Shown here: positions 21,380-43,877 of the stretch, in pieces | Layout of the letters: every line of letters begins with the position of its first letter | How positions within the stretch are numbered: position 1 is the stretch's first letter | Source: an uncultured Clostridia bacterium | GTDB lineage: Bacteria > Bacillota > Clostridia > TANB77 > CAG-508 | Direction: 5' to 3' | NCBI GenBank assembly: GCA_944387555.1 | Contig: CALXFH010000001.1 | Coordinates: forward strand, 82,849 to 146,848 | Length of the DNA stretch: 64,000 nt | Program-made: the position numbers and the translations under genes | The notes under the pieces: generated by a model | The model's database searches: none | Seen by the model: only the letters and a program-made list of their open reading frames with translations | What the model was told of the DNA's origin: nothing

Positions 21380-21429
21380 AATTAATAGATGATAAAAGAC
21401 TAGGGAAGAGGTAGTTTTAACAAACTATC

Positions 21430-21890
21430 TCTTTTTAGTTATCCACAATTAACTAACAAACTGTGGATAACTTCTGTTTATAAAATGCATAGAAAAAACG
21501 AGTAAAAAATAGGAAAAAATAGATAAAAAAAGATAATCATATATTTTTGAAAGAATATCAAAATCTTGGATACCTGTGGATAACTTCGCTTAAAAATAAT
21601 TCAAAAAAAATAGAATAAATTAGAAAAAAATTAAAAAAAATAGAAAACGAGAGAAAAAACGAGATAATGATATATGTTGATAACTATAAAAATGAAAAAA
21701 TTAGAAAAAAATAGAAAAAAAAAGGATAAATTAGAAAACAAGAGATAATCATATGAAAATGAGTATGTGGAAAAGCTGTGGAAAATGAAAAACGAAGAAA
21801 ACAAGAGAATAAATTAGTAAAAAATCGAAAAAAATAGAAAATGAGAGATAATGACATAAAAATAAACTGTGGATAACTAAATAATGTTAG
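21430..21890. promoter_or_regulatory. Third DnaA-box cluster, organised as four tandem repeat units (GAGATAATSATAT ... DnaA box), immediately downstream of dnaN
   Basis: Inverted pair TTATCCACA (~21441) / TGTGGATAA (~21465); then units ending in tgtggataacttcgc (~21576), tgttgataactat (~21676), tgtggaaaagctgtggaaaa (~21766) and ctgtggataactaa (~21872). Each unit is preceded by aaaaatagaaaa-gagagataatSAtat. Confidence 0.7.
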
Positions 21891-21899
21891 CACTTAAAA

Positions 21900-24400
21900 A
21901 ATTATTTTTATATTTTTAGGAAACAGAAGAATAAAAAAGAATAAAAAAGAAAAAAATAGAATAAATTAGAAAATAAGAGAAAAACATAGGAAAATAAGAA
22001 TATTTAAAAATTAGGTTAAATAATAAATAAAATTAATTATAAAAAAATTAGAAAAAAATAGATAAAAAAAGAATAAGCTAGAAAATAAGAGAAAAACATA
22101 TGAAAATAGGAATATTAAAAAAATGGGTAAGATAATAAATTAAATTAATTATGAAAAAATTAGAAAAAAATAGATAAAAAAAGAATAAGCTAGAAAATAA
22201 GAGAAAAAAATATGAAAACAAGAATATTTAAAAAATAATAAATGAAATTAATCACAAAAAAATTAACGAAAATCAAAAATAAGCCGATTTATTTTTTAAA
22301 TAATATAAATATTAATTCTAAAATAATAAAAAAATTAGAAAAAAATAGAATAAATTAGAAAAAAGGAGGAAAGTATATAAAAATAGGGATATTTAAAAAC
22401 TATAAAAAATAATAAATAAATTTAATTATAAAAAATTATTAATGAAAATCAAAAATAAGCTGATTTATTTTTTTATAAATTAAAAAATAATGAAAAAAAT
22501 AGATAAAAAAAGAATAAATTAGAAAATAAAAGAAAACTATATAAAAATAAAGATATTTAAACAAATAAAAATAAAAAAATAATTGACTAACGAAAATCTA
22601 GTAGAAGCCTTTTTAGTATTTTTATTAATATAATTTTATAGAAAAATAAAAAATATTAATGTTTTTTAGAATAGAAAAATCAATAAAAGACAGTATTTTA
22701 AATGGATTAGGGGATTTTTGCAAATAAAAAAATAAAAATAACAAAACGCGAAAATCAAAAATAAGGCTTTTTATTAATATTATTTTTAAAAATATAGTAA
22801 AAAATAAATAAATAAAAATTATTTAATTAATTAAAAATATTTTTTATTTAAAAAGATAACTAAAAGTAAAAAATACAATTAATTATAAAAAATAAAATAA
22901 ATTAAAACAATTATAAAAAAATTAATAAAAAATATTTAATAAATAAATTAATAAAATTTTATAAAAATAAAATATTAATAATAAATAATAAATAATAAAT
23001 AGATAAAGAATAAATTATTTAATTAGAAAAAATATATTAAATAAAAAATAATTAATTAAATAATAAATAAAATAAATATATATATAATTAAATTAATTTA
23101 ATTTTTTTATAAAATAATTCTAAAAAAATAATTAATTAAAATAAATATTTAATTGTTTAATTAATTATAAAACAAAAAATTCATATATATACAAAAAGTT
23201 TTAGAAGTTATTATTATTTTAAATTAAAATAATATTTAAGAAAAAAAGACAATAGATTAAAAGAAAAATAAAAAATGTTAATAAATTTGATAAAAAATAA
23301 TTGGTATAATACTAGGGATTTAAAGTGTTAGTCAATTTTAATAAACTAAAGAAAAAAGTTTACATATAACGTGTTATAAATATTATTTTCATATAATTGA
23401 TCTTGTTTTAAGGAATCTTTTTAAAGGTAAAAATAAAAGTTACTTTATTTTTTATAATAAAAAATAATATAAAAAAATTAAAAATTAATTTGAAAATATT
23501 TTTTTAAAATAAAATAAATAAATAAAAAATTATTTATTAAATAAAAACTAAATAAACAAATAAAAAAATTATAAAAAGAAAATAAAAATAAATAAATTTA
23601 AATAAATAAAAAATAATATAAAAAAATATTTAAATAATTAAAGTAAAAAATAGTTATTTAAATAATAAATACTTTATTTTAAAATTAAATTAATGAAATA
23701 AAAAAATTAAAATAAGTATAAATTTTTTTTGCATATATTATTATATTTTTTAAAATTTAAATAAAAACTTATAAAGATTAAATAAACTAAAATAATAATA
23801 AAAAATAGGTATAAAATTTATAAAAACAATATAAAGATTACTAGGCATTAAAAGGTTTGCTTGATTAATTATGATTTATAAAAAACAATAAAAATAGTTT
23901 ACATATAACTAGAAATTTGAATTATTCTATTTAATTAATAATGCTGTTTGTTAGTATATTGTTAAAAGAAAAATTAAAATGAATATTATTTTTTTATTAA
24001 GAAATTTTAAAATATAAAAAAGAAATTGTAAAAAAAATTTTTAAATATTTTAATTTTAAATAAATAAAAAAATAATAATAAATTGAATTAATTATTTTAA
24101 TAAATAAAAATAATAATTAATTATAAAAAAATAATGATAAAAATAATTATTAATTAAAAAATAAAAAGAATTAAAAAATATAAAAAATTAATTATAAAAA
24201 AATAATAAAATAAATTAATTAAAATAATGATTTAGTAAAAACAAATAAATAAAATTAAATTAATAAAACAATAGAAACGACTTATGAAAATCGAAAATAA
24301 GCCGTTTTATTTTTTTCGATATATAAATTATAGAAAAAATGAAAAAACGATTGATTAATTTTAAAAAATAAAATATAATAAGTAATAAAGTTGTGCACAA
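21900..24400. repeat. Extremely AT-rich non-coding desert. It contains a degenerate 120-180-bp tandem repeat family (21.9-22.8 kb), five copies of GAAAATCAAAAATAAGCYG(A)TTTATTTTTT, and two copies of the TAGGCATTAAAAGG...GTTTACATATAA core
   Basis: Direct repeats at 22038-22110 and 22156-22230; the GAAAATC... motif at ~22262, ~22438, ~22589, ~22745 and ~24281; no ORF over 70 aa and none with normal composition. Confidence 0.75.
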
Positions 24401-28644: not shown

Positions 28645-28860
28645 AATAATTAATTAAAAAATAATTAATAAAAAAATAATTAATTAAAAAATAATTAATT
28701 AAAAAATAATTAATTAAAAAATAATTAATTAAAAAATAATTAATTTAAAATAAATTAATTTAAAATTAATTAATTAAAAATAAATTAATAAAAAAATAAT
28801 TAATTAAAAATAATTAATAAAAAAATAAATTAATTTAAAATAATTAATAAAAAATTAATG
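28645..28860. repeat. Microsatellite, ~13 units of a 16-bp repeat, AAAATAATTAATTAAA
   Basis: Read directly from the sequence. Confidence 0.9.
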
Positions 28861-29214
28861 ATTAAAAAAATAAAAAAATAAAAATATTCATTAAGAAAAT
28901 TAAAAGATTTTAAAATAGAAATGAGTTACAAAATAAAATAAAAATTATAAGTAGTTGGTTAAAATGAAAAGATAAAATACAAAGATAAAAAATCCAAATA
29001 AAAGTAAAAAAATATTATAAAGAAATAGGTTAAAAATGTTAGGCGTTTAAAAGAAAGCGGTAATGAATAAAATTAATTACCATTCAAGCAGAATTAGAAA
29101 AATAAGTTTACATATAAGAAAATAATAAATAGAAAAATGTTGTTATATTTTTAGGTTTTATTAAAATAAAGTTTAAAGAATTTAAAATATATTTATATTT
29201 AATTTATATAAATA

Positions 29215-29530
29215 TTAAATAAAAAATAAATTAATTTAAAAAATAATTAATTTAAAAAACAATTAATTAAAAAATAATTAATTTAAAAAACAATTAATTA
29301 AAAAATAATTAATTAAAAAATAATTAATTAAAAAATAATTAATTTAAAAAACAATTAATTAAAAAATAATTAATTAAAAATAAATCAATTTAAAAAATAA
29401 TTAATTAAAAAGTAATTAATTAAAAAATAATTAATTAAAAATAAATTAATTTAAAAAATAATTAATTAAAAAGTAATTAATTAAAAAATAATTGATTAAA
29501 AATAAATTAATTAAAAAATAATTAATAAAA
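29215..29530. repeat. Microsatellite, ~19 units of a 16-17-bp repeat, AAAA(A/C)AATTAATT(A/T)AA; a shorter related block lies at 29985-30120
   Basis: Read directly from the sequence. Confidence 0.9.
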
Positions 29531-30165
29531 TAAATAATTAATTACAAAATAATTATTTAAATAAAAATAATTTTTTTATAAAAATAAAAAAAATCTAATT
29601 AAAGAAAAATAATCAATTAAATAATTGTATATAAAGAAAAAATTAAAAATAAAAAGGAGGTTGCATAAATTTTGAAAAGTTTAAAAGAAATTATAAAAGA
29701 AACTTTAAAAAATATAAAAAAGGAATTAAAAGAATTACTAAAAAGGCTTAGGCATTAAAAGAAAAAGAAGAATTGATAAAATGAAAGACAAATTTAAAGT
29801 GAGTAGCTACAAAGGTTTACATATATAAAAATAAAATTCTTAATGCTATTTAAATAAATAAGTTTGTTGTTTCGATTTAGTATTTCAAAAAAATAAAATT
29901 TCATAAAATTAAAAAGAAAAAATAAAATATTTAATTTTAAATATTAATAAAAAATAATCAATTAGAAATAAATTAATTAAAGATAATTAACAAAAAAATA
30001 ATAAAATAAAAAATAAAATAAATTAAAAAATAAATTAATTAAAAAACAAATTAATTAAAAAATAAATTAATTAAAAAAATTAATTAAATAAAAATAATAA
30101 AATAAAAAAAATTAATTAACAAAAATGAATAATTAATTTTATTAAATAGAAAAAGGAGGAGAAAA

Positions 30166-32034
30166 TTGTTAAAAGAAAAAATAGAAAATATATTTAATAA
30201 AAATAAAAAAGAAATTAATGATAATTTTTTTGAAGGGACTATATATAAAAAAGATGAAATATCACCAGCATATATAGATATGCAAAATCCTAAATATTTA
30301 GAAATAGATAATTTATATTATGGAGGATTAATAGTAGTAGATTATTATAGAGAACAGACAGATATCATTTTAAAAACATTAATAGAAACTAATATTAATA
30401 TGAATATTTCTGTTTTTTATGAAAAACAAGATCCGTTTAAAACTATAAAAGATTTAACATATCATATAGGTAATGTAGGAGTAGAATTAAAAGAAAGTAA
30501 TCAAAACAGAGAGGATATAGATATAGCAGCTTTTACATACAATGATGCTAAATATATAAGAAAAGAAATACAAGTAAATAATGAAGATATTTATTATTTA
30601 TATATTTATATTAGTATATATGCAGAGAATGTAAAAGAATTAGAATACTATTTAAATAAAATAGAAGGTATTGCACAAAGCAAAGGCATGCAAACAAGAA
30701 GAGCAAATTTTAGACAAGAAGAATTATTTTTATCTTGCTTACCTATAATGGAAAATAATAATACAATAAAAGATGCAGCGAGAAGAAACGTCTTAACTTC
30801 TGGTTTACTTGCAACATACCCATTTATATCTTCTACTATATTTGACCAAGATGGAATCTTTATTGGTACTAATATATATAATAATTCTTTAGTTTTTATA
30901 GACAGATATAATAATCAAAAATATAAAAATGCTAATATATGTATATTTGGAACTAGTGGAGCTGGTAAATCATTTTATACTAAATTATTAATATTAAGAT
31001 ATAAACTATTAGGGATTAGTCAATATATAATAGACCCAGAAAGAGAGTATGACCATTTATGTGAAAGTTTAAAAGGAACACAAATTAAAATAGGACCTAA
31101 TTCAGATACATATATTAATGTTTTGGAAATAAGAAAGGAAAGTTTGGAAGAAGGAGAAAGCGGATATTTAGCTACTAAAATAGGAAAGCTTATAGGTTTC
31201 TTTAATCTAATATTTGGGGAATTAAATGAAGAAGAGAAGGCTTTAATAGAAGAGAAACTAATAGATACATATAAAATGAAGAATATTAATTTTGATGATA
31301 AAAGCTTATATAAAGAAATAAGAACAAATAAAAAGATAAAAAAGGTATTTAAAGATCCACAAGATATGCCAATACTAGAAGATATATATAATATATTAGG
31401 AAAAGATGAGAGAACTAAAAAATTTCAAATAAAACTTATTCCTTTTGTTAAGGGGTCTATGAAATTCTTTAATAATATATCGAATATAAAATTAGATAAT
31501 GAATTAATAGTTGCAGATATATATGATTTAGGAGAAGAGAATTTAAAATATGGTATGTATTTATTTACAGAAATATTTTGGGACAAGATTAAAGAAAACA
31601 GAAATGAAAAGAAAGCAATATACTTAGATGAAATATGGAGATTAATAGGTGTAACATCTAATAAAGAAGTTGCAAGCTTTATATATAAAATATTTAAGAC
31701 TATTAGAAAATATGGTGGTAGTGGAGTAGCAATAACACAAGATATATCAGATATATTTAGTTTGGATAATGGTACATATGGAAAAAGTATTTTAAATAAT
31801 TCTAGTATTAAAACATTTTTTGCATTAGAAGAGGAAAATATAAAAATACTTTCAGATTTTACTAATTTATCAGAAAAAGAAAAAGTAGAAATTAAATCTT
31901 TAAAAAGGGGAGAGTGTTTAATGTTTGTTGGTGATGAACATATATTAACTAAAATAGAATGTTCTGAATTAGAACAAGAAATATTAGAGGGAGGAAAGAA
32001 TAAGAATAATGAAAAAAATAATATTAGCAATTGA
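30166..32034 (+). CDS. VirB4-like ATPase paralog with an N/K-rich biased composition
   Basis: Walker A CIFGTSGAGKSFYT; Walker B KKAIYLDEIWRLIG (DE-x-W); the N-terminal region parallels 181..2205; RBS AAAGGAGGAG. Confidence 0.65.
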   Translation: MLKEKIENIFNKNKKEINDNFFEGTIYKKDEISPAYIDMQNPKYLEIDNLYYGGLIVVDYYREQTDIILKTLIETNINMNISVFYEKQDPFKTIKDLTYHIGNVGVELKESNQNREDIDIAAFTYNDAKYIRKEIQVNNEDIYYLYIYISIYAENVKELEYYLNKIEGIAQSKGMQTRRANFRQEELFLSCLPIMENNNTIKDAARRNVLTSGLLATYPFISSTIFDQDGIFIGTNIYNNSLVFIDRYNNQKYKNANICIFGTSGAGKSFYTKLLILRYKLLGISQYIIDPEREYDHLCESLKGTQIKIGPNSDTYINVLEIRKESLEEGESGYLATKIGKLIGFFNLIFGELNEEEKALIEEKLIDTYKMKNINFDDKSLYKEIRTNKKIKKVFKDPQDMPILEDIYNILGKDERTKKFQIKLIPFVKGSMKFFNNISNIKLDNELIVADIYDLGEENLKYGMYLFTEIFWDKIKENRNEKKAIYLDEIWRLIGVTSNKEVASFIYKIFKTIRKYGGSGVAITQDISDIFSLDNGTYGKSILNNSSIKTFFALEEENIKILSDFTNLSEKEKVEIKSLKRGECLMFVGDEHILTKIECSELEQEILEGGKNKNNEKNNISN

Positions 32035-33289
32035 AAATAAAAAGTTAGAAGATAAATTAAAAGAAAATAATAATATAAAAATAATATGTAACAATTTACA
32101 ATATAGAGAAGCTATTTTAGAAATATTAGATAAAAATAAAAATATAGATTTTATTTTAATTAATGAAAATTTACCAGGAATAATTAGTATAGAAGAATTA
32201 GTAAAAAAAATAAAAATAATTAATAATAAAATTAATATAATTATTTTTTTAGAAAAAGATGATATTAATAAAATAAATAGATTAAAAAAATTAAATATAA
32301 ATAATATTTATTTAAATAAAAAAATAAATATAAATAAAATAATTAATTTAATTCTTAAAAATAATAAATTTAATAATAATTATAATAAAAATAATTTATT
32401 AAATTATAAAATAAAAAAAGAAAAAATAAATAATAATAAATTAATTAAAATAAATAATTTTAAAAATAATAAATTTAATAAATTAAAAATTATTTTAAAT
32501 AAAATTAAATTAAATAAAAATAAATTAAACAATAATATTCATTTAAATAATAAAAATAAAAAAGAAAATAAATTAATTACTATAATGGGAAAAAGAAAAA
32601 CAGGAAAAAGTACAATAATAAATTTATTATTAATTTATTTATTACAAAAAAATAAAAAAATATTATTAATTAATTTAAATAAACAATTAGAAAATAATTA
32701 TTTAATTTTATTCGGAAAAAAATATTATAAAATTAAAAATAATTATTTTAATAAATATAATTTAATTAATAATAAATTAAATAAAAAAAATATTTTTTTA
32801 AAATCTGAAATTAAAATAAATAATAATTTATTCTTTTTAAATAATTTCCAAAAAATAATTCAACAAAATAATTATAATAATATTTTAGAATATTTTACTA
32901 AATATTATATTAAGAAATATGATTATGTTTTAGTAGACATCGGAGATAGTGCAAATAGAAGAATAAAACAAAAAATAGTAAAAATAAGTGATAAAAACAT
33001 AATGGTTATGACCAATGATTTACTAGGCATTAAAGAGGTAGAGAGATTAAGTCTGGAGTCAAACTTAAAAGAAGATAACAAAGAAAATAGTTTACATATA
33101 ATACTTAATAAATATTATTTTAATTCAATTAGCAACAGCATTTTTAAAAATTTGGTTAAAAGAAAAATAAAATTTAGTACAATTTTTTATAATAAAAAAT
33201 TTATAAATCTTTCAAATAAAATTTTAAAAAATAGAAAATTTAATTTTAATTTATTTTTTAAAAATAAATTAAAAAATATTTTAAAATAA
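32009..33289 (+). CDS. Pseudo-receiver domain fused to a ParA/MinD-family ATPase (TadZ/CpaE-like architecture); extreme N/K/I low complexity
   Basis: N-terminal receiver-like fold in which the phospho-acceptor position is N (FILINENLPG). P-loop ITIMGKRKTGKSTIINLL; Walker B-like DYVLVDIGD. The 3' end overlaps a satellite core copy (33033-33102). Confidence 0.45.
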   Translation: MKKIILAIENKKLEDKLKENNNIKIICNNLQYREAILEILDKNKNIDFILINENLPGIISIEELVKKIKIINNKINIIIFLEKDDINKINRLKKLNINNIYLNKKININKIINLILKNNKFNNNYNKNNLLNYKIKKEKINNNKLIKINNFKNNKFNKLKIILNKIKLNKNKLNNNIHLNNKNKKENKLITIMGKRKTGKSTIINLLLIYLLQKNKKILLINLNKQLENNYLILFGKKYYKIKNNYFNKYNLINNKLNKKNIFLKSEIKINNNLFFLNNFQKIIQQNNYNNILEYFTKYYIKKYDYVLVDIGDSANRRIKQKIVKISDKNIMVMTNDLLGIKEVERLSLESNLKEDNKENSLHIILNKYYFNSISNSIFKNLVKRKIKFSTIFYNKKFINLSNKILKNRKFNFNLFFKNKLKNILK

Positions 33290-36200
33290 AATTGATTAAA
33301 TAAAAAAATAAATAAAATTAATTAAATTAATTAATAAAAATAAAATAATTATTTTTAATAAAATAAAAAATTAATTAAAAAATAATTATTAATTAAAAAT
33401 AAAAAATAATTAATTTAATAAAATATTAAAATAAATATAAAAAATATTTTTTAAATATTTAAATAATTTAATTAATTAAATATTTAATAAAAATAAAAAT
33501 AATTTTTTATAATAAATATTAATTTTTATTTTTTAATAATTTAGGAATAAATTATTTTAAAAATTTTAAATTATAAAATTATATTTTTAAAAATAAAAAA
33601 ATTATATAAAAATATTTTAAAAAACTTATAAGAATAAAAATAGTTAATAAAATTATAGAAAAAATAATCAATAAAATGTTAGGCATTAAAAGGATTAGAG
33701 AGTTATTAATAAAATATAGAAAAACAAGAAAAAGGTTTACATATAATAATTAATAAAAACAAATCAGATATGGAGATTAGATATATTTTTAATAATTTTA
33801 CTGGTAAAAAATTAAAATTTACTATGATTTAATATTATTAAAAAATAATATTAAATAAAAAATAATTAAACAAATTAAAATATTAATTTAAAAATATTTA
33901 TAGAATAAATTAAAAAAATATTTTAATAAAAAATAAATAAAATTAATTAATAAAAATTATTCAATAAAATAAAAAATAAAATTAATCATTACTAATTAAT
34001 AAAAAATAATTAATTAATAATAAAAAAATAAATAATTAAATAAATAAAATAATGAAATAAATGAAAATAATTTAATTAAATAAAAAATAAATATTAAAAT
34101 AATTAAATAATTAATTTATTTAAAATAATTATTAAAAATAAAAAATTAAATTATAAAAAAATAAAATAAATTTTTTCTAATAATTTTATTAATAAAATAG
34201 AAATTTAAAATATAAAAAAATGTTTTACCAGATATAAATGTTTTTAATTAAAATAAAAGTTCACAAAAAAGACAATAGCATAAAAGAATAATAAAAAATA
34301 TTTATGAAATTGGTAAAAAATAATTAATAAAAAACTAGGCATTAAAAGAATTGAACGATTATTAATAAGCCACTGAATAATAAACAAAAAAGTTTACATA
34401 TAACATATTATAAATATTATTTTTCTTGGATTATTAATCAGTGTTTTCAAGAATTTTCTTAAATACTAAAATTAAATTCATTTTATTTTTATAAAAATAA
34501 ATTAAAATAAATAATATAAAAAATTAATTTTATAAAATTAATAAAAAATATTTAATTTAAAAATAAATAAAATTAATTAATAAAAAAATTATTTAATTAA
34601 ATTAAATAATAATAAAAAATAATAATTTAAAAATAAATAAATTAATTAAATAAATAAAAAAATATTTTAATAATTAAAATATTAATTAATTTAAATTAAT
34701 AAAAAACAATTATTAATTAAAAAATAAAAATAGTTAATTAAATAAAAAATTAAAAAATAAATATAAAAAATATTTAAATAATTAATTAATATAAAATAAT
34801 AAAAATTAATTTTAAAAAATATATTTTAAATTATAAACTAAAGAACCAAAAATTATAGAGGAAAAATTATAGTTACTTTTCTGTTAATCTTAAAAAGCAT
34901 ACATAAGGATAAAAAATATAAAATAGAAAGCAAAATATAGTAAAAATAATTAATGAATTACTAGGCATAAAAGGGATAGACAAGCTAGATTTTAAATAAA
35001 TAAAATAGAAGAAAATAGTTTACATATTTTTGTTAAATTAAATTTGATTTTATCTAATTATTTAAAATAATTTAAAAAATTGTTGTTATAAAAAAGAAGT
35101 TTATTATAATTTTTTATCAAATATTAAAATAGAAAATAGAAATTATAAAAAATTAATTTAAAATATTTTTTAAAAATAAAAAATATTTAATAAATAAAAT
35201 TAATTAATAAAAAGTTATTTAATAAAATAAAAAATAAATAAAAATAATAAAATAATTATTTAAAAACAAATAATTTAAAATTTAATTAAATATAAAATAA
35301 TTATTAATTAAAAATAAAATTAATTTAAAAAATATTAAAATAAATATAAAAAAGATTTTTTTAAATATTTATATAATTTAATTAATTATTTATAAAAATA
35401 AAAATAATTTTTTATAACAAATATAATTTTTGATTTTGAATAATAAGAAGAAATTATATTAAAAAAAATAATATAAAAGGATTTTATAATGACTATCATA
35501 ATAAAATAGTTAATAAAAGCATAAAAAATAATTAATAAAATGTTAGGCATTAAAAGGATTGCACGATTAATAACAGAGAAAGAAAAAACAACAAAAATAG
35601 TTTACATATAACGAATGATTTAAATTATTTTTATTTAATAAAAGAGTCTGATTTAAAAAAATTATTAAAACAAAGATTAAGTTTATTATTATTTTTTATA
35701 ATAAAAAATTTAAAAATATAAAAAAGAAAATATTAAAAATTAATTTTAAAACATTTTTTAAAATTAAATAAAAAATATGTTAATAAAAAAATAAATAAAA
35801 TTAGTTAATAAAAAATTTATTTAATTAAATTAAAAAAATAATAAAAAATAATTAAATAATTAAAAATATAAATAATAAAAAAATAATAATTAAAAAATAA
35901 TTTTAATTAAATAAAAAAATATTTAATTAATTAAAATAAAAAATAAATATTTAAAATATTAATTTAAAATAATTTTATTATAAAAAATAAAATAAAATTA
36001 AAAAAATTATTTTTATAGCAATAATATTTTTGATAATAAAAAATAAAAAAGGTAGTATTGAAATTTTTCTAATTTAAAGAATAGTTTAAATTAATAAAAA
36101 AATATAATAAAAACAAAATAATTTGTGAAAATGTTAAAAAAATAAATTTTAAAAAGTTAGGCATTAAAGGGATTGCAAGATTAATAATAGATTAGAAGAA

Positions 36201-36850
36201 GACAAGAAAAATAGTTTACATATAATGAATAATTGAAATTACTTTTATTTAATCTAGAGAACTTATTTTAAAAATATTATTAAAATAAAAATAAAATTTG
36301 TATAGTTTTCATTCTAATAATTTAGAAAAAAGAATATTAAAAAATAAAAAATTAATTTAAATTTATTAAAAAAATAGAATAATAAAAAATAAAATTAATT
36401 ATTTAAATAAATAAAAAATATTTAATAAAAAATAAATTAATTATTTAAATAAATAAAAAATAATTAATAAAAAAATAAATTAATTATTTAAATAAATAAA
36501 AATAATAAAATTAATTATTTAATAAATAAAAAGAATTAATAAAAATAAATTAGTTGTTTTTAATAAATAAAAAATAAAATTTTTTAAAATTTGTTTTTAA
36601 ATCTAAATTTGATTTTTAAGTAAAGCATAAAGATTTAAAATCTGAAATTAAAATCTAAAAAATATTCCAGAGAATTAATTAAATATTAAATAGAAAGATA
36701 ATATTTTTTAAAAAATTGTTATTTATATTTAATTTAAATATACGCAAATAAGCATTTTTAAAAATATGAACGAGTAAAAAGAATAAAAGAAAACAGTTAA
36801 CATATAAAAGAAAACGTTAACTATATTAAAGAAGTATTTTTAAAAGATTC
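33033..36850. repeat. Satellite-like tandem array of ~7 units with a 580-660-bp period. Each unit has a conserved ~70-bp core, (T)TAGGCATTAAAAGG-N45-AGTTTACATATAA
   Basis: Core copies at 33033-33102, 33679-33746, 34336-34403, 34962-35027, 35543-35611, 36157-36225, and a degenerate copy at ~36770-36830. The spacings are 646, 657, 626, 581, 614 and ~610 bp. Confidence 0.8.
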
Positions 36851-37066
36851 TACAAAAATTATAAACTAAAAAGAATATAAAAAATTATTTATTATTTTAT
36901 AAAAAGAAAATTATAAAATTAATTTATTTAATTTTATAAATAAATAATTATTTTAATTAATAATTAGAAAAATAAATTATTTTATTTTAAATAAAATAAT
37001 TAAAATTAAAATAATTAAAAATAAAAAATAATTAAATAAAAATAGAAAAAGAAAGGATGAAAAAAT

Positions 37067-37814: not shown

Positions 37815-38783
37815 ATGGAGAAAAAAATAAATACTAATATTGAAAATAATAAACGAAATGAAAAAGAAATAAATAATAAAAATAATACATATAAAGAGGA
37901 TAATAAAAAGAAATTTAAATTATTAGATCCAAAAAATGATGTTGTATTTCAAATGTTATTTCTTAAAAATAATTTAGCAAAAGGATTATTAGATAATATT
38001 TTAATAGATAAAATAATTTCTGTAAATGTTGATGTAAATAAACAGTTATTAGGAGATAGACCAGAAGATAAAATAGGAATAGTAGATTTAAGAGCAATAA
38101 TAAATAATGAAATAGAATGTGAAGTAGAAATGCAAATGTTTTATTTTAATAATTTTGTTCCGAGATTTTTAGATTATTGGTCTAAAATGTATTCAAGACA
38201 ACTAAAAAAAGGAGATAATTATGACTTATTACATAGAGTTATTTCTATTGCTATTATTAATCAAAATATTCCAGACTTAAAAGGATTACCAGCACATACT
38301 ATATGGAATATAAGAGAATCTAGGAATCATAGAAAAATATTGACAAATAACTTAGAGTTACATATAATAGAAATACAAAAGGCTAAAGAGGAATATAAAC
38401 ATAACAAGGATGATAAATTATTACAATGGATAAAGTTTCTAGAAAACCCAGAAAGCAAGGAGGTAGATAGAATAATGGTAAGTAATAAAGAAATAAAAGA
38501 AGCTAAAAAAGAATTATTTAGCTTAAGCCAAGATGAAGAAAACCAAAGAATAGCAGATTTTAGAGAAAGAGAAATTATGGATAGAAAGGATATCTACGAA
38601 ACAGGAAAGGATGAAGGTAAGGCAGAAGGAATAAAAGAAGGAAGAAAAGAAGGAATAAAAGAAGCAAGAGAAACTTTTATAATAAATTTACTTAAGATTA
38701 AAATGCCAATTGATAAAATAATAGAATTTACAAGTGCAACTAAAGAAGAAATTGAAAAAATAAAGGAAAGTAAAAATCTATAA
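37815..38783 (+). CDS. Rpn-family (YhgA-like) PD-(D/E)XK recombination-promoting nuclease / putative transposase
   Basis: N-terminal DPKNDVVFQMLF...EVEMQ pattern; C-terminal repeat-helix domain ...KEGRKEGIKEARETFIINLLKIKMPIDKIIEFT..EEIEKIKE. Confidence 0.6.
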   Translation: MEKKINTNIENNKRNEKEINNKNNTYKEDNKKKFKLLDPKNDVVFQMLFLKNNLAKGLLDNILIDKIISVNVDVNKQLLGDRPEDKIGIVDLRAIINNEIECEVEMQMFYFNNFVPRFLDYWSKMYSRQLKKGDNYDLLHRVISIAIINQNIPDLKGLPAHTIWNIRESRNHRKILTNNLELHIIEIQKAKEEYKHNKDDKLLQWIKFLENPESKEVDRIMVSNKEIKEAKKELFSLSQDEENQRIADFREREIMDRKDIYETGKDEGKAEGIKEGRKEGIKEARETFIINLLKIKMPIDKIIEFTSATKEEIEKIKESKNL

Positions 38784-39273: not shown

Positions 39274-39314
39274 GTGTCCCCAAATGCACATTTTTGAGCA
39301 AAAGGAAACGTCCC
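39274..39314 (-). repeat. GGGAC-element copy A (reverse orientation), immediately 3' of the XRE gene stop
   Basis: Reverse complement reads gggacgtttccttttgctcaaaaatgtgcatttggggacac; compare copies at 44684 and 47707. Confidence 0.7.
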
Positions 39315-39685
39315 TATTTTTTATTTTTTTCATATTCTTTGAAAAATGAATATGATGTAGTTAATATTTTATAATAATAGTCCTTCATTTCTTCAGAACT
39401 TCTATTTAATATTCTATCTATTTTTTGTGAGGTTGAATTTGTTTCTTCATTACCAAATAAAATATAGTCTGTAGATACTCCAGTAAATGCTACTATACGG
39501 CATAATGTTTTTATACTTAATGAACGTTCGCCTCTTTCTATTTGCCCTAAGAATATATCAGATATATCAACTGCTTCTGAAAATACTTCTCTACTCATTT
39601 TCATGTTTTCTCTTGCTTTTCTTATTCTTTCTCCTACTTCTAAATTATTTGGTATCTTTGTATCCATATTATTCCTCCCAAACAT
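39314..39685 (-). CDS. XRE-family helix-turn-helix transcriptional regulator, divergent from the DGR target gene
   Basis: HTH LSREVFSEAVDISDIFLGQIERGERSLSIKTLCRIVAFTGVSTDYIL. Confidence 0.75.
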   Translation of the reverse strand: MFGRNNMDTKIPNNLEVGERIRKARENMKMSREVFSEAVDISDIFLGQIERGERSLSIKTLCRIVAFTGVSTDYILFGNEETNSTSQKIDRILNRSSEEMKDYYYKILTTSYSFFKEYEKNKK

Positions 39686-39780: not shown

Positions 39781-39809
39781 TTGCAAAATAAATATGCTTA
39801 AAGTATAAT
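39781..39809 (+). promoter_or_regulatory. Promoter for the DGR target gene (TTGCAA-17-TATAAT)
   Basis: TTGCAA 39781-39786, 17-nt spacer, TATAAT 39804-39809. Confidence 0.5.
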
Positions 39810-39995: not shown

Positions 39996-41375
39996 ATGTA
40001 TAATTATTCTAAAAATTATAATTTTAATTCTAATAAAGATAAAATAAAAGACAAAATAAAAAAGATAAAAACAAATAATTCTGGTATTACTATTGTTGCT
40101 TTAGTTGTAACTATTATTGTTTTATTAATTTTAGCAGGAATAACAATAGGAGCAATTACTGGAGATAATGGTATTATTAATAAAGCGCAAGAAGCTAAAA
40201 ATGATACCAATTATGCTCAATGGGAAGAAAAGATTGACCAAGCTATCATAGATGCAGAAAGTAAATACAGAAATCCAACTATGATTAATGTAAAAGAAGA
40301 GTTAAGAGATAAAGGCATAATTGAAGATTATGACAAAGTAGATGACAAAACAGGAGCTATAACAACAGTAGATGGTACCATAATAGAAGGTAAGCTTGAT
40401 GATTATATAGAGTTTGGACCAGGTATGGTAGCGGATAAGAATGAAACTTATACAGATGCAAATGGAGACACAGCAACGATACCAAAAGGTTTTGAGATAT
40501 TAGAAGATGCAAGTACAGTAGATGATGGTTTAGTTATTCAAGATGAAAGTGGTAACCAATTTGTATGGATACCAGTAGAAACACCAGTAGCAAGTGCAGA
40601 AGCAGATGGAACAACAAATAAAGCAATGGCAATAAAGAATGGAAATAATTATAGAGGTTTACTTTATGACTTTACTAGTACAGGCTCAACAGTAAAAAGT
40701 GGATGTACAACGACTACAAGTAGTTATAGAGAGCCAGCTTATTTAACAGATTCAAGTTATGCGGATGGGTCTTCATATAATCAAGATGGAGATGGAAATA
40801 AAATAGTAACAGAAGATAGTCTACAACAAGAATATAATAAAATGATGGCAAGCGTTGAACAATATCATGGCTTTTATGTAGGAAGATATGAACTTGGTTT
40901 AGAAGGAACAACGCCAGTAGTAAAAAACGCAAGTACGAATTCAGGTGTTACAACAGCAGATGCAAGTAATTCAAATACTAAGATGTGGTATGGCTTATAT
41001 AGTAAGTGCAAAGAATTTGCACCAGAAGATAGTAATAAATCAGTGGTAAGTAGTATGATATGGGGAAGTCAATATGATGAAATGCTTAATTGGATGCAGG
41101 CAAATGGAGAAGATGTGTCAGCATCAGCTGATAACACTGAAACAATAAGAAATAATTCTACAAAAACAGGAAGTCAAGAAAAAGATTTTATGAAAAATGT
41201 ATATGACCTTTATGGATGTCATTATGAGTGGAAATTAGAGGCCAACATCACGAAAGAACGTGTTTATCGTGGAGGTAATTCTAGCAGTAGCAGCGCTCCT
41301 AGCAGCCGTCGCAGCACCTATTCGAGCAATGCCAGCAGTACCTATTCAGCCCGTCTCACTTTATATATAAAGTAG
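39996..41375 (+). CDS. DGR target (variable) protein. N-terminal pilin-like hydrophobic anchor, beta-rich central region, and a C-terminal FGE-sulfatase/C-type-lectin-fold-like domain ending in the VR
   Basis: N-terminus ..NNSGITIVALVVTIIVLLILAGITIGAITG; C-terminus ..DLYGCHYEWK..ERVYRGGNSSSSSAPSSRRSTYSSNASSTYSARLTLYIK; strong RBS AGAAGGAGG. Confidence 0.8.
   Translation: MYNYSKNYNFNSNKDKIKDKIKKIKTNNSGITIVALVVTIIVLLILAGITIGAITGDNGIINKAQEAKNDTNYAQWEEKIDQAIIDAESKYRNPTMINVKEELRDKGIIEDYDKVDDKTGAITTVDGTIIEGKLDDYIEFGPGMVADKNETYTDANGDTATIPKGFEILEDASTVDDGLVIQDESGNQFVWIPVETPVASAEADGTTNKAMAIKNGNNYRGLLYDFTSTGSTVKSGCTTTTSSYREPAYLTDSSYADGSSYNQDGDGNKIVTEDSLQQEYNKMMASVEQYHGFYVGRYELGLEGTTPVVKNASTNSGVTTADASNSNTKMWYGLYSKCKEFAPEDSNKSVVSSMIWGSQYDEMLNWMQANGEDVSASADNTETIRNNSTKTGSQEKDFMKNVYDLYGCHYEWKLEANITKERVYRGGNSSSSSAPSSRRSTYSSNASSTYSARLTLYIK
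41240..41360 (+). repeat. DGR variable repeat (VR) at the 3' end of the target gene
   Basis: Matches the TR at 43522..43632; over a 93-nt core, 14 of 16 mismatches correspond to adenines in the TR. Confidence 0.8.
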
Positions 41376-41489
41376 TACTGAGACCTGAGTTGTGAGTATT
41401 GGAAATAGTAGAAAATTAAAACATTAAGAGAATTTAATTTTTTAGGTTGTAAAAGAATAAAAACTGTAGTAAAATTTAAGTTAATAGAA

Positions 41490-41580
41490 AGGTAGGTAGG
41501 AAATTCCCTTGCAGGGCGAAGACGCCAAAAGGGGATTTCCTACCGGACTAGTCCGGTAAGACTAGTCCTATTTTTTTGCG
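41490..41580 (+). other. GC-rich nested palindromes downstream of the VR (candidate DGR target-recognition hairpin / terminator)
   Basis: ggtaggaaattccc-[ttgcagggcgaagacgccaaaa]-ggggatttcctacc; ggactagtcc-ggtaa-gactagtcc-tattttttt; gcgaaaaaataggact. Confidence 0.5.
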
Positions 41581-41648
41581 AAAAAATAGGACTAAGAACA
41601 ACGAAAGGTTACATAAAACCTTATAAAAATAGAAAGGTGGGATTTTTT

Positions 41649-42080
41649 ATGAAATTTTTAAAAAGAATAGAAAAAATAAAGTCAGAAAATGAAGATAAAA
41701 TAGTATTAGCAAGATGTGGATTATTTGTAGTGGCAGTAGGAAATGATGCAAGAATATTAAGTAAAGAATTTGGATTAAAGAAAACTTGTATGAAAAGAGG
41801 GGTATGTAAAGTAGGAATACCTGCTAGCTATGCATTAAAATATTTAAAATTAATAGAAGATAAAGGTTATAGTTATTTATTATATGACTATGATAAAAAT
41901 ACAAAAGAAATGATAGAAAAATATAGATATATTGGTACTAATAAAGTAGAAGAAATTAGCATAGATTGTCCTTCTTGTGAAAATTATAAAGAACAAGATG
42001 TTATAGATATCTTTGAATTATTAAGAAGAAAAAAAGAAAAAAATAAAAAAGAAGTAAATGGGGAAAAAGAAAATGAATGA
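41649..42080 (+). CDS. Small protein with a MutS domain I (mismatch-binding domain)-like sequence, located between the DGR target and Avd. The ORF track uses a GTG start at 41637
   Basis: KIVLARCGLFVVAVGNDARILSKEFGL...VCKVGIPASYALKYLKLIEDKGYSYLLYD parallels MutS [25 protein letters not shown]...[29 protein letters not shown]. The Phe is conserved and the Glu is not. AAAGGTGGG lies 8 nt upstream of ATG 41649. Confidence 0.45.
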   Translation: MKFLKRIEKIKSENEDKIVLARCGLFVVAVGNDARILSKEFGLKKTCMKRGVCKVGIPASYALKYLKLIEDKGYSYLLYDYDKNTKEMIEKYRYIGTNKVEEISIDCPSCENYKEQDVIDIFELLRRKKEKNKKEVNGEKENE

Positions 42081-42468
42081 AAAAAGTAGAGAAAATAACA
42101 TAAGAGAAAATGGAAAAAATGAACTAATATTAATACCAAAATATGAAAGATATATGCAGTATATGATAGAAATAATTTTAAAAATGCCAAGAACAGAAAA
42201 ATTTAATATAGGAAATGAATTTAAAACAGTTATGTATAAATGCTTAGAAAATATACTGTATTTAAATAAAATAGAAATATCAAAAAGAATGTATTATTTA
42301 AATTTAATAGATGCAGGTTTAAATATTCAAAGAATAATGCTTAGGATAATGTTAAAAAATAAGTGGATAGATAAAAAGAAATATTTAGTATCAATGGAGT
42401 TGTTATATGAAATAGGAAAAATATTAGGAGGATTAATAAAGTTTTATGCCAAAAACAATAAGAAATAA
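42058..42468 (+). CDS. avd: Avd-like DGR accessory protein (small basic helical protein); the likely start is ATG 42073
   Basis: ~130 aa, basic, predicted all-helical; sits immediately upstream of the RT and overlaps its start. Confidence 0.55.
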   Translation: MGKKKMNEKSRENNIRENGKNELILIPKYERYMQYMIEIILKMPRTEKFNIGNEFKTVMYKCLENILYLNKIEISKRMYYLNLIDAGLNIQRIMLRIMLKNKWIDKKKYLVSMELLYEIGKILGGLIKFYAKNNKK

Positions 42469-43462
42469 GTATTATAAATATTTAACATTTAATAGGCTTA
42501 TGGAAGCACATAAGAAAGCAAGAAGGGGAAAAGGATATAGAGAAGAAATAATAAAATTTAATCTAAAACAAGAAGAATATATAATGTATCTATTAGAAAG
42601 GTTGAGGAATAAGAGTTATAAACATGGAGGCTATAAAGTATTTTATATAACAGAGCCAAAACCTAGAAAAATAGAACGTTCAAGATATATAGATAGAATA
42701 GTACATACATTTTATGTAGAAAACTTTTTAAAACCATATTTTATGCCTTGTTTTATAAATACAAGTTATGCATGTATTCCATGTCGTGGTATGCATAAGG
42801 CATGTTTAGATGTGCAAAAAGCTATGAAACATTGTAAAAATATTTGGGGAGAATATTACATTCTAAAGATGGATGTAACAAAATATTTCCAAAATATAGA
42901 TAAGGACATATTGTTAGAAATATTAAAGAAGAAAATAAAGGATAAAGATTTATTGTGGTTAACAAAAGAAATAATATATTCAAATAAAGGAAAAAAGAGT
43001 TTACCAATTGGAAATTATACATCACAAATGTTTGCAAATATTTATTTAAATGAATTAGACCAATATGTGAAAAAAGAATTGGGAATAAAATATTACTTTC
43101 GTTATATGGATGACTCAGTTTTATTTGTACGTGGCAAAGAAGAAGCTAAATGCTATTTAGAAAAAATAAAAGAATTTATTTATTCTAAATTAGAACTAAC
43201 ATTAAATAAAAAAACACAAATATTTAAATCTAAACAAGGAGTAAATTTTTGTGGTTATAAAATAAATGAATATAGACTAAAGATTAGGGATAAAGGAAAA
43301 AGAAAATTAAAGAAAAAAATCGTAAAGTTAAAAAAGTTAATAAAAGAGGGAGAGCTTACAAGTGATGATGCTAAAAAATATTTAGTAGGTCATCTAGGAT
43401 ATATAAAAATAGCAGATACATATAAGTTAGAAAATAAACTATTTTATAGAGAAAATAAGTAA
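42446..43462 (+). CDS. DGR-type reverse transcriptase
   Basis: Motif 4 LPIGNYTSQMFANIYL (the [ILV]GxxxSQ DGR signature); motif 5 FRYMDDSVLF (YMDD); motif A region ILKMDVTKYFQNI; 338 aa with no maturase or endonuclease domains. Confidence 0.85.
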   Translation: MPKTIRNKYYKYLTFNRLMEAHKKARRGKGYREEIIKFNLKQEEYIMYLLERLRNKSYKHGGYKVFYITEPKPRKIERSRYIDRIVHTFYVENFLKPYFMPCFINTSYACIPCRGMHKACLDVQKAMKHCKNIWGEYYILKMDVTKYFQNIDKDILLEILKKKIKDKDLLWLTKEIIYSNKGKKSLPIGNYTSQMFANIYLNELDQYVKKELGIKYYFRYMDDSVLFVRGKEEAKCYLEKIKEFIYSKLELTLNKKTQIFKSKQGVNFCGYKINEYRLKIRDKGKRKLKKKIVKLKKLIKEGELTSDDAKKYLVGHLGYIKIADTYKLENKLFYRENK

Positions 43463-43521
43463 ATTTAGAAAATATAAAAAATTATTAAGTAAAAATAATT
43501 TTAATTAGGGATAAATCAAAA

Positions 43522-43632
43522 GGCCAACAACACAATAATCGTGGAGGTAATTCTAACAATAGCAACGCTCCTAGCAATCGTAACAACAACAATCCGAACA
43601 ATACCAACAGTAACAATTCAGCCCGTCTCACT
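43522..43632 (+). repeat. DGR template repeat (TR), rich in AAC/AAT codons
   Basis: ggccaacaacacaataatcgtggaggtaattctaacaatagcaacgctcctagcaatcgtaacaacaacaatccgaacaataccaacagtaacaattcagcccgtctcact. Confidence 0.85.
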
Positions 43633-43877
43633 CTAATACGATTCTAGATTATATATTTTAAGGAATATATACAATGAAAGTATTAGTATTAAAGAGATTT
43701 ATTCCTTCCTAATATAGGTAAAAAAGTATCAGTAAAATAGGTATTAGTAAAAATACCAAGAAGTATTTTGAATATACTTATTTTACAATTAATTATTTAA
43801 TTTAAGTTGATATATTTTTATTTAATTTAATTTATTTTATTTTTTAAATACTTAAAATTAATTTAAAGAGGTAAAAA

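Follow-up and report, generated by a model that had tools for sequence, protein, structure and literature searches.

A covarying structured element between a pilin-like target gene and the mutagenic module of a diversity-generating retroelement from gut Clostridia

The window analysed here, a stretch of 64,000 nucleotides of contig CALXFH010000001.1 from an uncultured Clostridia bacterium, carries an intact diversity-generating retroelement (DGR) in which a compact group of GC-rich palindromes separates the target gene from the genes of the mutagenic machinery. The cassette and all its parts lie on the + strand in the order target, msl, avd, reverse transcriptase (RT), template repeat (TR) and RT-14 RNA. 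The target gene (39996..41375), an open reading frame (ORF) of 459 aa, encodes a pilin-like N-terminus, a conserved middle domain and a C-terminal variable repeat (VR). Identification of the VR (41266..41363) rests on its match to the TR (43538..43635), with which it forms a 98-nt repeat of 83% identity whose A-biased mismatches are concentrated at TR adenines (18/45 A sites vs 5/65 non-A sites). The 16-mer TTCAGCCCGTCTCACT at 41345-41360, which resembles an initiation of mutagenic homing (IMH) sequence, is found within the window at the VR and the TR only. A second patch of VR/TR similarity (GGCCAAC..CAC) lies upstream of the clean repeat, at 41241-41265 and 43515-43537, with an offset of about 10 nt that places it out of frame. 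Past the palindromes comes msl (41649..42080), a MutS domain I-like accessory gene (Pfam MutS_I, E = 7.7e-8) of a small family comprising 25 clusters. It is followed by avd (42058..42468; Pfam bAvd, E = 3.5e-16), whose product matches NCBIfam DivGenRetAVD with E = 1e-19 and 70.6 bits, under the 80-bit cut-off, and by the RT gene (42446..43462; RVT_1, E = 3.4e-18), in whose translation the motifs IGNYTSQ and YMDD can be read directly. The start of avd overlaps the end of msl and the start of the RT gene that of avd; therefore, the three genes are probably translationally coupled. The RT-14 RNA (Rfam RF02921; 43631..43786) starts within the last bases of the TR, scores 106 bits against a gathering score of 48, is likewise found after the TR in three relatives (L102, L176 and L158) and probably serves this DGR lineage as its spacer/priming RNA. 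It belongs to the RT-associated motifs described by Weinberg et al. 2017 (PMC5737381). The MSL accessory class was defined by Wu et al. 2018 (PMC5758913), and the cassette, which is chromosomal, corresponds to their "architecture D". Its host is an uncultured Clostridia bacterium of the gut with a very AT-rich genome.

The palindromic element (41495-41594) starts 132 nt past the VR and 120 nt past the stop codon of the target gene. It is one copy of an element of roughly 115 nt, arranged in three helices termed P1, P2 and P3. P1 (41495..41544; dG -32.4 kcal/mol, z = -7.9) comprises a 16-bp outer stem and an inner hairpin, GGCG-AAGA-CGCC (41515-41526); its arm GGTAGGAAATTCCC (41495-41508) pairs with 41531-41544 and includes one G.U pair. 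P2 is the hairpin GGACTAGTCC-GGTAA-GACTAGTCC (41545-41568), with nine pairs, five of them GC, and is continued directly by the U-tract TATTTTTTT. Together they form a site (41545..41577) that a terminator scan picks out as intrinsic-terminator-like and that has the hairpin plus U-tract of Rho-independent terminators; it is the sole + strand site of this kind in 38.5-45.5 kb. In the GC-richer relative L102, a 10-bp version of P2 is also the sole terminator-like site across the cassette. P3 (41563..41594), a fourth palindrome that had escaped the initial annotation, emerges from folding as the pairing of the P2 3' arm and the U-run with a downstream A-run and GGACTA, giving 14 bp closed by a UGCG loop. 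P2 and P3 overlap and are mutually exclusive. Their computed energies in the window are -13.6 kcal/mol for P2 vs -15.4 for P3, and across sequence types they range from -13.6 to -17.1 vs -15.4 to -16.4 kcal/mol, respectively. In all types P3 extends into the P2 3' arm, GACU(A) pairing with GGUU, GGUC or AGUC.

The initial annotation had pointed to a GC-rich island about 130 bp after the VR and to palindromes whose folding as RNA and as DNA deserved attention. This description holds: the palindrome at 41495-41544 encloses the inner hairpin and is followed by that at 41545-41568 with its T-run, the GC content is 38-45% in the element vs 21-31% in the flanks, and the 141-nt fold is far more stable than expected both as RNA (z = -6.2) and as DNA (z = -7.0), with 0/200 shuffles folding as well. 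Two direct repeats border the element. The upstream one, ATAGAAAGGTAGG (41484..41496, + strand), is Shine-Dalgarno (SD)-like and overlaps the 5' base of P1; its downstream counterpart, ATAGAAAGGTGGG (41629..41641, + strand), is the SD region of msl. The window copy differs from its sister L003 and from every other copy at the P2 apex (41551-41562), where 12 nt are inverted (GTCCTACCGGAC to GTCCGGTAAGAC, plus one substitution) in what looks like a palindrome-mediated event.

The invariant core of the element, CCTACCGGACTAGTCC-N5-GACTAGTC, was found in 101 metagenome contigs, mostly from the human gut, and in 0 viral contigs. In all 80 fetched contigs with enough flanking sequence, the core is preceded at 122-175 nt (mostly 162-164) by the end of a target homologue and followed at 80-135 nt by the start of msl, after which come avd and the RT gene. 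The initial annotation had considered a generic terminator common to unrelated genes; this does not apply, as every fetched occurrence with sufficient flank lies between a target homologue and msl. A covariance model (R1) built on 25 sequences and searched against 541 kb of loci returned 90 matches, one sense-strand copy per cassette, and no other copy in the window, at four loci with remote targets, in the decayed locus L099 or elsewhere in the 541 kb. The element is nearly unchanged in close relatives (L003, L004-L006), where P1 has a single change, from C to T, by which a G-C pair becomes G.U. In the distant msl cassettes L094 and L100 the helix is kept and its sequence rewritten, AAATTCCC/GGGGATTT giving way to AGAATTTGTTT/AAGCAAATTCT or GAATTCG/CGAATTC. 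Moreover, at least eight sequence types with unalignable P1 interiors all form hairpins of 19-24 bp in this position (z = -5 to -11).

Covariation was evaluated in 45 distinct sequences. An alignment of the element made with MAFFT was discarded in favour of one guided by the covariance model, the P1 interior and P3 being misaligned in the former. In the latter, 97% of the alignment cells pair and 23/40 pairs have changed on both sides (18/22 in P1 and 5/11 in P3), counts whose weight is reduced by the fitting of this alignment to the model structure; the P2 stem is invariant in all 45 sequences and hence uninformative for covariation. A crude MAFFT/RNAalifold run had already given six doubly changed P1 pairs. 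The covariation score amounts to 0.256 vs 0.087 in shuffles, 0/500 of which reach it, and to 0.03-0.04 after a shift of the partners by 1-3 columns. Several of the pairs are of the G.U type when read on the + strand and would be C.A mismatches on the opposite strand, and the apical loops of P1 and P3 are mostly of the GNRA type (GUAA, GAAA, GUGA, GCAA, GGAA). Because of these G.U pairs, the mostly GNRA loops and the U-tract after P2, the element is read as RNA, and the comparison as a whole points to a sense-strand structured RNA. Rfam 15 gave no match to the spacer either in the window (E <= 10) or in eight diverse relatives (E <= 1), the only hit being RT-14 at the TR.

Further features of the target-msl spacer were observed in individual lineages. 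A 14-nt unit, TACCGGACTAGTCC, is usually present in two copies, in three copies in L165 and L178, and in at least eight at the end of contig L144 (1-170). In L101 and L103, inspection by eye of the spacer upstream of P1 revealed an AGGG...CCCT hairpin whose loop, GCTTC or GCTCCT, has its complement further downstream (GAAGC or AGGAGC, respectively). This arrangement is pseudoknot-like with a compensatory change, and the whole spacer of about 270 nt may be structured.

On the other side of the VR, the target protein starts with M1...K25 T N N S G30, followed by ITIVA35LVVTIIVLLILAGITIGAITGDNGIINKAQEAK. Residues 1-29 contain eight Lys vs two Asp/Glu, and the single hydrophobic segment, at 31-55 (about 25 residues), is succeeded by GDNGIINKAQEAK. 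This arrangement has the short basic leader, the Gly at -1 and the hydrophobic helix of about 20 residues of a prepilin signal. Pilins carry a Glu at +5 (Glu5), a position that is occupied by Ala35 in the window protein, just as the initial annotation had described. The class-III-signal-like module, G30 followed by ITIVALVVTIIVLLILAGITIGAITGDNGIINKAQEAK with Ala at +5 (coding positions 40083..40199, + strand), is supported by profile matches in the PDB and by N_methyl scores. More than 5,000 homologues of the target were retrieved, none with a Pfam domain, and their consensus at the N-terminus reads K/N-G followed by (I/V)T(L/I)(I/V)(A/S)LV(V/I)TI(V/I)(V/I)LLILAG(I/V)SI..LTG(D/E/N)NGI(I/L)..A. 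T32 and L36 are invariant in 42 homologues, and family members with a GITLIAL-type N-terminus almost always have Ala or Ser at +5. When a profile of this 42-member family was compared with all PDB sequences, the eight matches were all type IV pilins (PilE1, geopilin, PilA5, MshA, PilA). They are limited to the N-terminal helix at G followed by (I/F)TL(I/V)(A/E)L, with the Ala of the family opposite the pilin Glu5, and they are weak (E = 0.015-1.2) because the matched segment is short. Likewise, N_methyl (PF07963) is the sole recurrent Pfam family, detected in 17/42 members at E <= 0.01; P0240, which bears the module, reaches 24.5 bits vs a cut-off of 21.2. A search with the module alone returned 3,270 proteins, and most intact cassette-linked targets start with it, nearly all ending in an RGG...(F/A)R(L/V/A) VR. 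A full-text literature search for the N-terminal peptide string gave no match.

The genomic context of the module was informative in another genome (L202, 7000-17000). Here, two small genes starting with MLKNNKG followed by ITLIALVVTIIVLLILAGVSIAMLTG..., with Ala at +5, are located directly upstream of an A24_N_bact prepilin peptidase gene. The operon continues with two more pilin-like genes (Asp and Ser at +5), three genes for T2SSE ATPases and one for the T2SSF platform protein, and has a PilM_2-like gene on its upstream side, which suggests a Glu5-less pilus lineage in gut Clostridia. Since these putative pilins carry the Ala-at-+5 module, the missing Glu5 is best regarded as a trait of the clade and not as evidence against processing, and the Glu-less module appears to be the ordinary pilin N-terminus of the clade. 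The absence of Glu5 noted in the initial annotation stands, and the suggestion built on it, that the protein may be an unprocessed membrane anchor, is weakened by the same putative pilins. The length of the hydrophobic run, about 25 residues, makes a cleaved Sec signal unlikely, as does, in our own reading of the sequence (no predictor), the lack of an Ala-X-Ala-type site after it. By homology, the target can be considered pilin-like.

The main competitor for this part of the interpretation is that the N-terminus functions as a non-cleaved signal anchor, the target being a type II membrane protein whose resemblance to pilins results from convergent hydrophobicity. We regard it as somewhat unlikely. 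It would agree with the absence of Glu5, with the N_methyl score of the window protein, which at 12.6 bits remains under the 21.2 cut-off, and with the lack of type IV pilus genes in the 64-kb window. It would also agree with the family members that carry another N-terminus (GSITVFVL...) and have no N_methyl match, and with the survey of Roux et al., where cellular DGR targets are generically described as membrane-anchored, most of them simply so. However, Gly -1, Thr +2 and Leu +6 are invariant or nearly so, the next 30 residues are conserved far past the needs of an anchor, all PDB matches are type IV pilins, and the module also heads the small pilins of a type IV pilus operon. The pilin reading has to accommodate, in addition to the low N_methyl score and the missing pilus genes, that a single operon example from another genome supports it, the second context contig (L204) being fragmented and uninformative. 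In the structure model of the target (pLDDT 72) residues 1-56 are poor, and fold searches with the target returned neither a lectin nor a pilin match. On balance, a cleaved, filament-associated minor or tip pilin seems somewhat more likely than a plain signal anchor.

As for the remainder of the protein, the VR corresponds to the last ~35 codons and contains the RGG...ARL motif. The C-terminus of a GC-richer homologue of type A reaches 23.2 bits against FGE-sulfatase, whose cut-off is 23.3, and the window protein has no Pfam match. The target is read as a bimodular protein with a class III signal and alpha1-N helix, a conserved middle domain and a C-terminal RGG...ARL region of the C-type-lectin/FGE kind. 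Most likely, it would be exported in an N-in/C-out orientation, cut by a prepilin peptidase and displayed as a pilin-like adhesin in a minor or tip position, the DGR diversifying its binding tip.

The position of the element between this diversified gene and msl raises the question of its effect on expression of the mutagenic genes. In minimum-free-energy folds of the whole leader up to the msl start, 10/14 representative cassettes have a second CCUACC, made up of the P2 loop and adjoining bases, that is predicted to pair around P3 with the msl SD (GGUAGG, GGUGG or GGUUGG), in part or completely. In seven of these ten leaders the probability that the SD is unpaired, P(unpaired), is 0.00-0.19. 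A consensus scan of L102 between target and msl detected no promoter, and a candidate promoter upstream of P1, sought by eye, was rejected, as the -10-like strings there occur at chance level and the GC-richer types have no -35. Also by eye, a TTGNNA in the P3 loop was noticed 16-19 nt upstream of a conserved CATAAA/CATAAT that precedes the msl ribosome site in 6/8 types (e.g. L102 3208-3250). It is possible that this pair constitutes a weak internal promoter, although it fails the consensus scan in L102 and is misspaced in the window.

From the structure, position and conservation of the element, which are established, we infer termination, SD masking and their consequences as follows. Transcripts from the target promoter would mostly stop at P2-U7, and any read-through RNA would refold to P1 and P3, a state in which most lineages would have the ribosome site of msl masked. 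In this manner the element would insulate the mutagenic msl-avd-RT module from transcription of the target, and mutagenesis would thus stay low or conditional. The best explanation of the locus is, in our estimation with about an even chance (roughly 0.5), that a pilin-like exported target is combined with an element that acts in cis as a regulatory insulator or attenuator of msl-avd-RT. It shares with intrinsic terminators and SD-sequestering attenuators a GC-rich hairpin with a U-tract, mutually exclusive helices and, in most relatives, a predicted anti-SD opposed to a downstream SD. In contrast to classical attenuators, the competing helix lies past the U-tract, and no ligand-binding core, leader peptide or known motif for protein binding was identified.

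Several observations weigh against this explanation. Type A, the commonest one, has the SD GGAGG, for which the folds give no masking. In the window itself, P(unpaired) of the SD is 0.75, and masking is not predicted either, because the P2 apex inversion destroys the second CCUACC; the same inversion leaves the terminator intact. The changes that support SD masking across lineages are one-sided only. The location of P3 downstream of the U-tract leaves no room for classical antitermination during transcription, and a purely regulatory role does not explain the near-constant distance to the VR (about 160-175 nt).

A bolder proposal, which we consider doubtful, treats the element as an on/off riboregulator of hypermutation that gates the diversification of a Glu5-less type IV pilus tip adhesin and is maybe read by MSL, Avd, the RT or a cellular signal. 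By switching from the terminator state to the P3/anti-SD state and back, it would set when msl-avd-RT-TR is made.

Alternatively, the structured RNA may serve as a platform. In this case it would be a binding site for MSL, Avd or the RT, involved in autoregulation or in assembly of the DGR ribonucleoprotein, or else a site for RNase III or other processing and a 5'/3' stabiliser that separates the target mRNA from the msl-avd-RT-TR RNA. The strict co-occurrence of the element with msl-type cassettes is in line with such a function, as is P1, an imperfect duplex of 19-24 bp with conserved internal mismatches and hence of the size typical of sites for double-strand-specific RNases or proteins. 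The invariant self-complementary GGACTAGTCC units, with a copy number of 2, 3, or 8 or more, recall a protein-binding array, and the spacer holds further conserved motifs and hairpins. However, the interior of P1 is conserved in its pairing and not in its sequence, so recognition would need the invariant base and P2. We consider this function unlikely; it is compatible with a terminator, the two not being exclusive.

The initial annotation had favoured a different function, that of an enlarged and distal target-recognition hairpin. In its general form, the palindromes would act as DNA hairpins or cruciforms that mark the target, or hold it open, for cDNA integration, in the manner of a larger and more distal BPP-1 stem-loop. 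Like the latter, the element is an inverted repeat downstream of the VR and absent from the TR; it is strictly linked to DGRs at a nearly constant 160-175 nt from the target stop codon. Its sense strand folds well as single-stranded DNA (the z of -7.0 given above), G.T pairs being tolerated in DNA hairpins, and, with the target co-oriented with replication, this hairpin-forming strand is the lagging-strand template. A 2026 study has proposed that the cDNA anneals to the lagging-strand template and that stem-loops prolong its open state, and reported that a target orientation co-directional with replication is favourable for cDNA integration (PMC12875486). However, the recognition hairpins characterised so far lie directly 3' of the IMH (PMC5758913, PMC12875486), and that of BPP-1 is one short GC-rich stem-loop right after the IMH that acts in retrohoming, whereas here a three-helix structure of roughly 115 nt starts 132 nt away. 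The element does not accompany each apparently diversified VR: a remote VR in another metagenome-assembled genome (MAG), L001, carries the identical 16-mer and A-biased differences to the present TR (16/36 A vs 9/61 non-A), from which its diversification, not its current activity, is read, and it has no copy of the element. Furthermore, three of its features would make no sense in DNA: the GNRA-type loops, the U-tract that follows P2 and the competing helix extending to the msl SD. For these reasons (the RNA features, the distance from the VR and the missing copy at L001) the original proposal is not supported, and we consider a DNA-level role quite improbable.

The position after the VR is held instead by another conserved motif, in some types together with a short hairpin. 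It reads G-TAG-N-CTGAGNCCTG in the window (GTAGTACTGAGACCTGAG; 41372..41389, + strand), has the general form G-TAG-N-CCTGAGNCCTG and is present in 24/24 distinct cassette-linked versions. With a single exception, the distinct versions examined have TAG as the stop codon of the target, and the motif is weak or absent after remote targets. In L142 and L158 it is followed by a 9-10-bp hairpin with compensatory changes. This post-stop motif is, as judged from its position, a better candidate than P1-P3 for a VR-proximal cis element. A conserved hairpin between the VR end and the motif was also sought by eye and rejected, being seen in the window and type A and missing from both L094 and type B.

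Finally, it is highly improbable that the palindromes represent a selfish or accidental insertion with a target-site duplication, similar to miniature inverted-repeat transposable elements or repetitive extragenic palindromes, since the flanking direct repeats (ATAGAAAGGTAGG, ATAGAAAGGTGGG), a locus devoid of the element exactly between GAAAGGTAGG repeats (L099 1-230 vs L094 3780-4010), the varying copy number of the 14-nt unit and an IS110-family transposase element that in L095 (2280-3850) and L097 has landed in the target-msl spacer, some 20 nt before the palindromes, are outweighed by the single copy of the structured element per locus in a fixed place and orientation, its at least eight diverged types with compensatory changes and the lack of further copies in the window or in the 541 kb of loci, and since L099 is a decayed locus (an msl remnant persists; target, avd and RT are gone) that is explained by deletion between short palindrome-flanking repeats.

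At a larger scale, the window corresponds to the origin region of a genome with a very high AT content (23.6% GC). ORFs resembling dnaA, dnaN, recF and gyrB in size and order, assigned from their translations, occupy 18.5-27.4 kb, and gyrA starts at 45.2 kb; Pfam supports gyrA alone, via a relative (DNA_topoisoIV). The genes switch from the - to the + strand at about 18 kb, which marks the origin, and the DGR target lies about 22 kb from it, co-oriented with replication, within an insert of about 18 kb that fills the gyrB-gyrA gap. Among public sequences, those most closely related are metagenome contigs and two MAGs labelled "uncultured Clostridia bacterium". Within the insert, 30166-33289 encodes a TraG/VirB4-like P-loop ATPase together with a receiver-plus-ParA/CpaE-like protein, and 37815-38783 contains a PD-(D/E)XK transposase-family gene; these may be remnants of a mobile element that delivered the DGR. 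Three kilobase-scale stretches contain no ORF of at least 60 aa on either strand (33300-37000, 28650-30160 and 21400-24400, with GC contents of 7.5%, 8.2% and 11.9%). They sit between the dnaN- and recF-like ORFs and in the gyrB-gyrA insert, and gave no Rfam match.

Upstream of the target, a gene for an XRE-family helix-turn-helix regulator (39314..39685, - strand, divergent; Pfam HTH_3, E = 2e-11) has counterparts at the equivalent position in close relatives (L003, L004, L005, L007 and L009). The promoter-like string TTGCAA-17-TATAAT (39781..39809, + strand) matches the consensus at 10/12 positions and would leave a leader of about 185 nt. Both the regulator gene and the promoter-like string, from which the initial annotation had suggested a regulated unit, are present, though strings of this kind occur at chance frequency: 46 matches were found in the AT-rich region vs 51 expected from shuffles. 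The spacer between the XRE gene and the target is 94% conserved among four close relatives, and the promoter-like string is invariant there without standing out from the uniform background.

The distribution of the cassette defines a narrow, mostly metagenomic clade of gut Clostridia. A blastn search of the whole cassette against a phage database gave no match, and among viral contigs the RT relatives are only 30-40% identical, no MSL relatives were detected and the element pattern was not found. Because viral contigs yield only such distant RTs, without MSL or element, the cassette is taken to be of a cellular and not of a viral lineage. A scan of genome contigs with the target recovered two MAG loci only, both with remote targets and no cassette. 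Two homologues, P0012 and P0014, proved to be non-cassette paralogues whose VRs show no A-bias. Decay of the cassette was also observed: at the equivalent locus upstream of gyrA in L004 and L005, avd and RT are deleted and msl is cut to 98 aa, the target and the element being intact. A weak match to a group II intron 5' end (D1-D4, E = 0.003, under the gathering score) lies at the truncated 3' end of the RT gene in L094 (5485-5525).

Part of this system is already known, the cassette being an ordinary member of the MSL type and RT-14 a described motif. It shares with the MSL architecture-D DGRs of the earlier survey the order target, msl, avd, RT and TR, the pairing of msl with avd, the C-terminal VR and the adenine differences, and differs in that neither a structured element between target and msl nor pilin-like targets are described there (PMC5758913). 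The element resembles the RT-14 and RT-10 RNAs of Rfam as a DGR-associated structured RNA found comparatively, RT-14 even belonging to the same cassette, but those RT motifs (PMC5737381) flank the TR and the RT, whereas P1-P3 sits two genes upstream, before msl, and has no Rfam family. The roughly 115-nt P1-P2-P3 RNA appears to be undescribed in Rfam 15 and in the literature examined, although its mechanistic kind (terminator, alternative helix, anti-SD) is familiar. The pilin-like targets of this lineage, and the Glu5-less pilin N-terminus widespread in gut Firmicutes, also appear to be undescribed.

With regard to the target, precedents are the modular type IV pilins PilB and PilC of Streptococcus sanguinis, in which the pilin helix carries a large adhesin or lectin module at its C-terminal side, and GspK of the type II secretion system, a Glu5-less tip pseudopilin that caps the filament. 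Unlike these, the present target has a C-terminal module that is hypervariable through the DGR. Its Glu-less N-terminus also occurs in putative major pilins of the clade and is thus not a mark of tip subunits. Among VR-bearing proteins, one DGR survey lists a "GspG-type pilin" domain as a rare case. Chromosomal DGRs of gut Bacteroides are reported to diversify the adhesive part of type V pilus subunits (bioRxiv 10.1101/2024.11.15.621889). The likeness lies in gut chromosomal DGRs acting on the adhesive part of a pilus subunit, and the difference in another pilus system, with lipoprotein-type export, and another phylum.

How DGRs restrain their mutagenic RT is little understood, and nothing comparable to the element is present in the DGR surveys and literature examined. 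A covarying RNA placed between the diversified gene and the mutagenic operon offers a concrete, testable candidate for such control in at least a hundred human-gut cassettes, and it could be used as a compact metagenome marker for this DGR lineage. Should the element act as a riboregulator and the target as a pilus tip, they would represent the first cis-acting DGR regulator and the first DGR-diversified type IV pilin, respectively. If the "GITLIALV" module works as a pilin signal, thousands of unannotated proteins of gut Firmicutes would be pilus subunits or pilus-displayed adhesins, and this lineage would diversify pilus-borne tips as the Firmicutes counterpart of the type V targets of Bacteroides.

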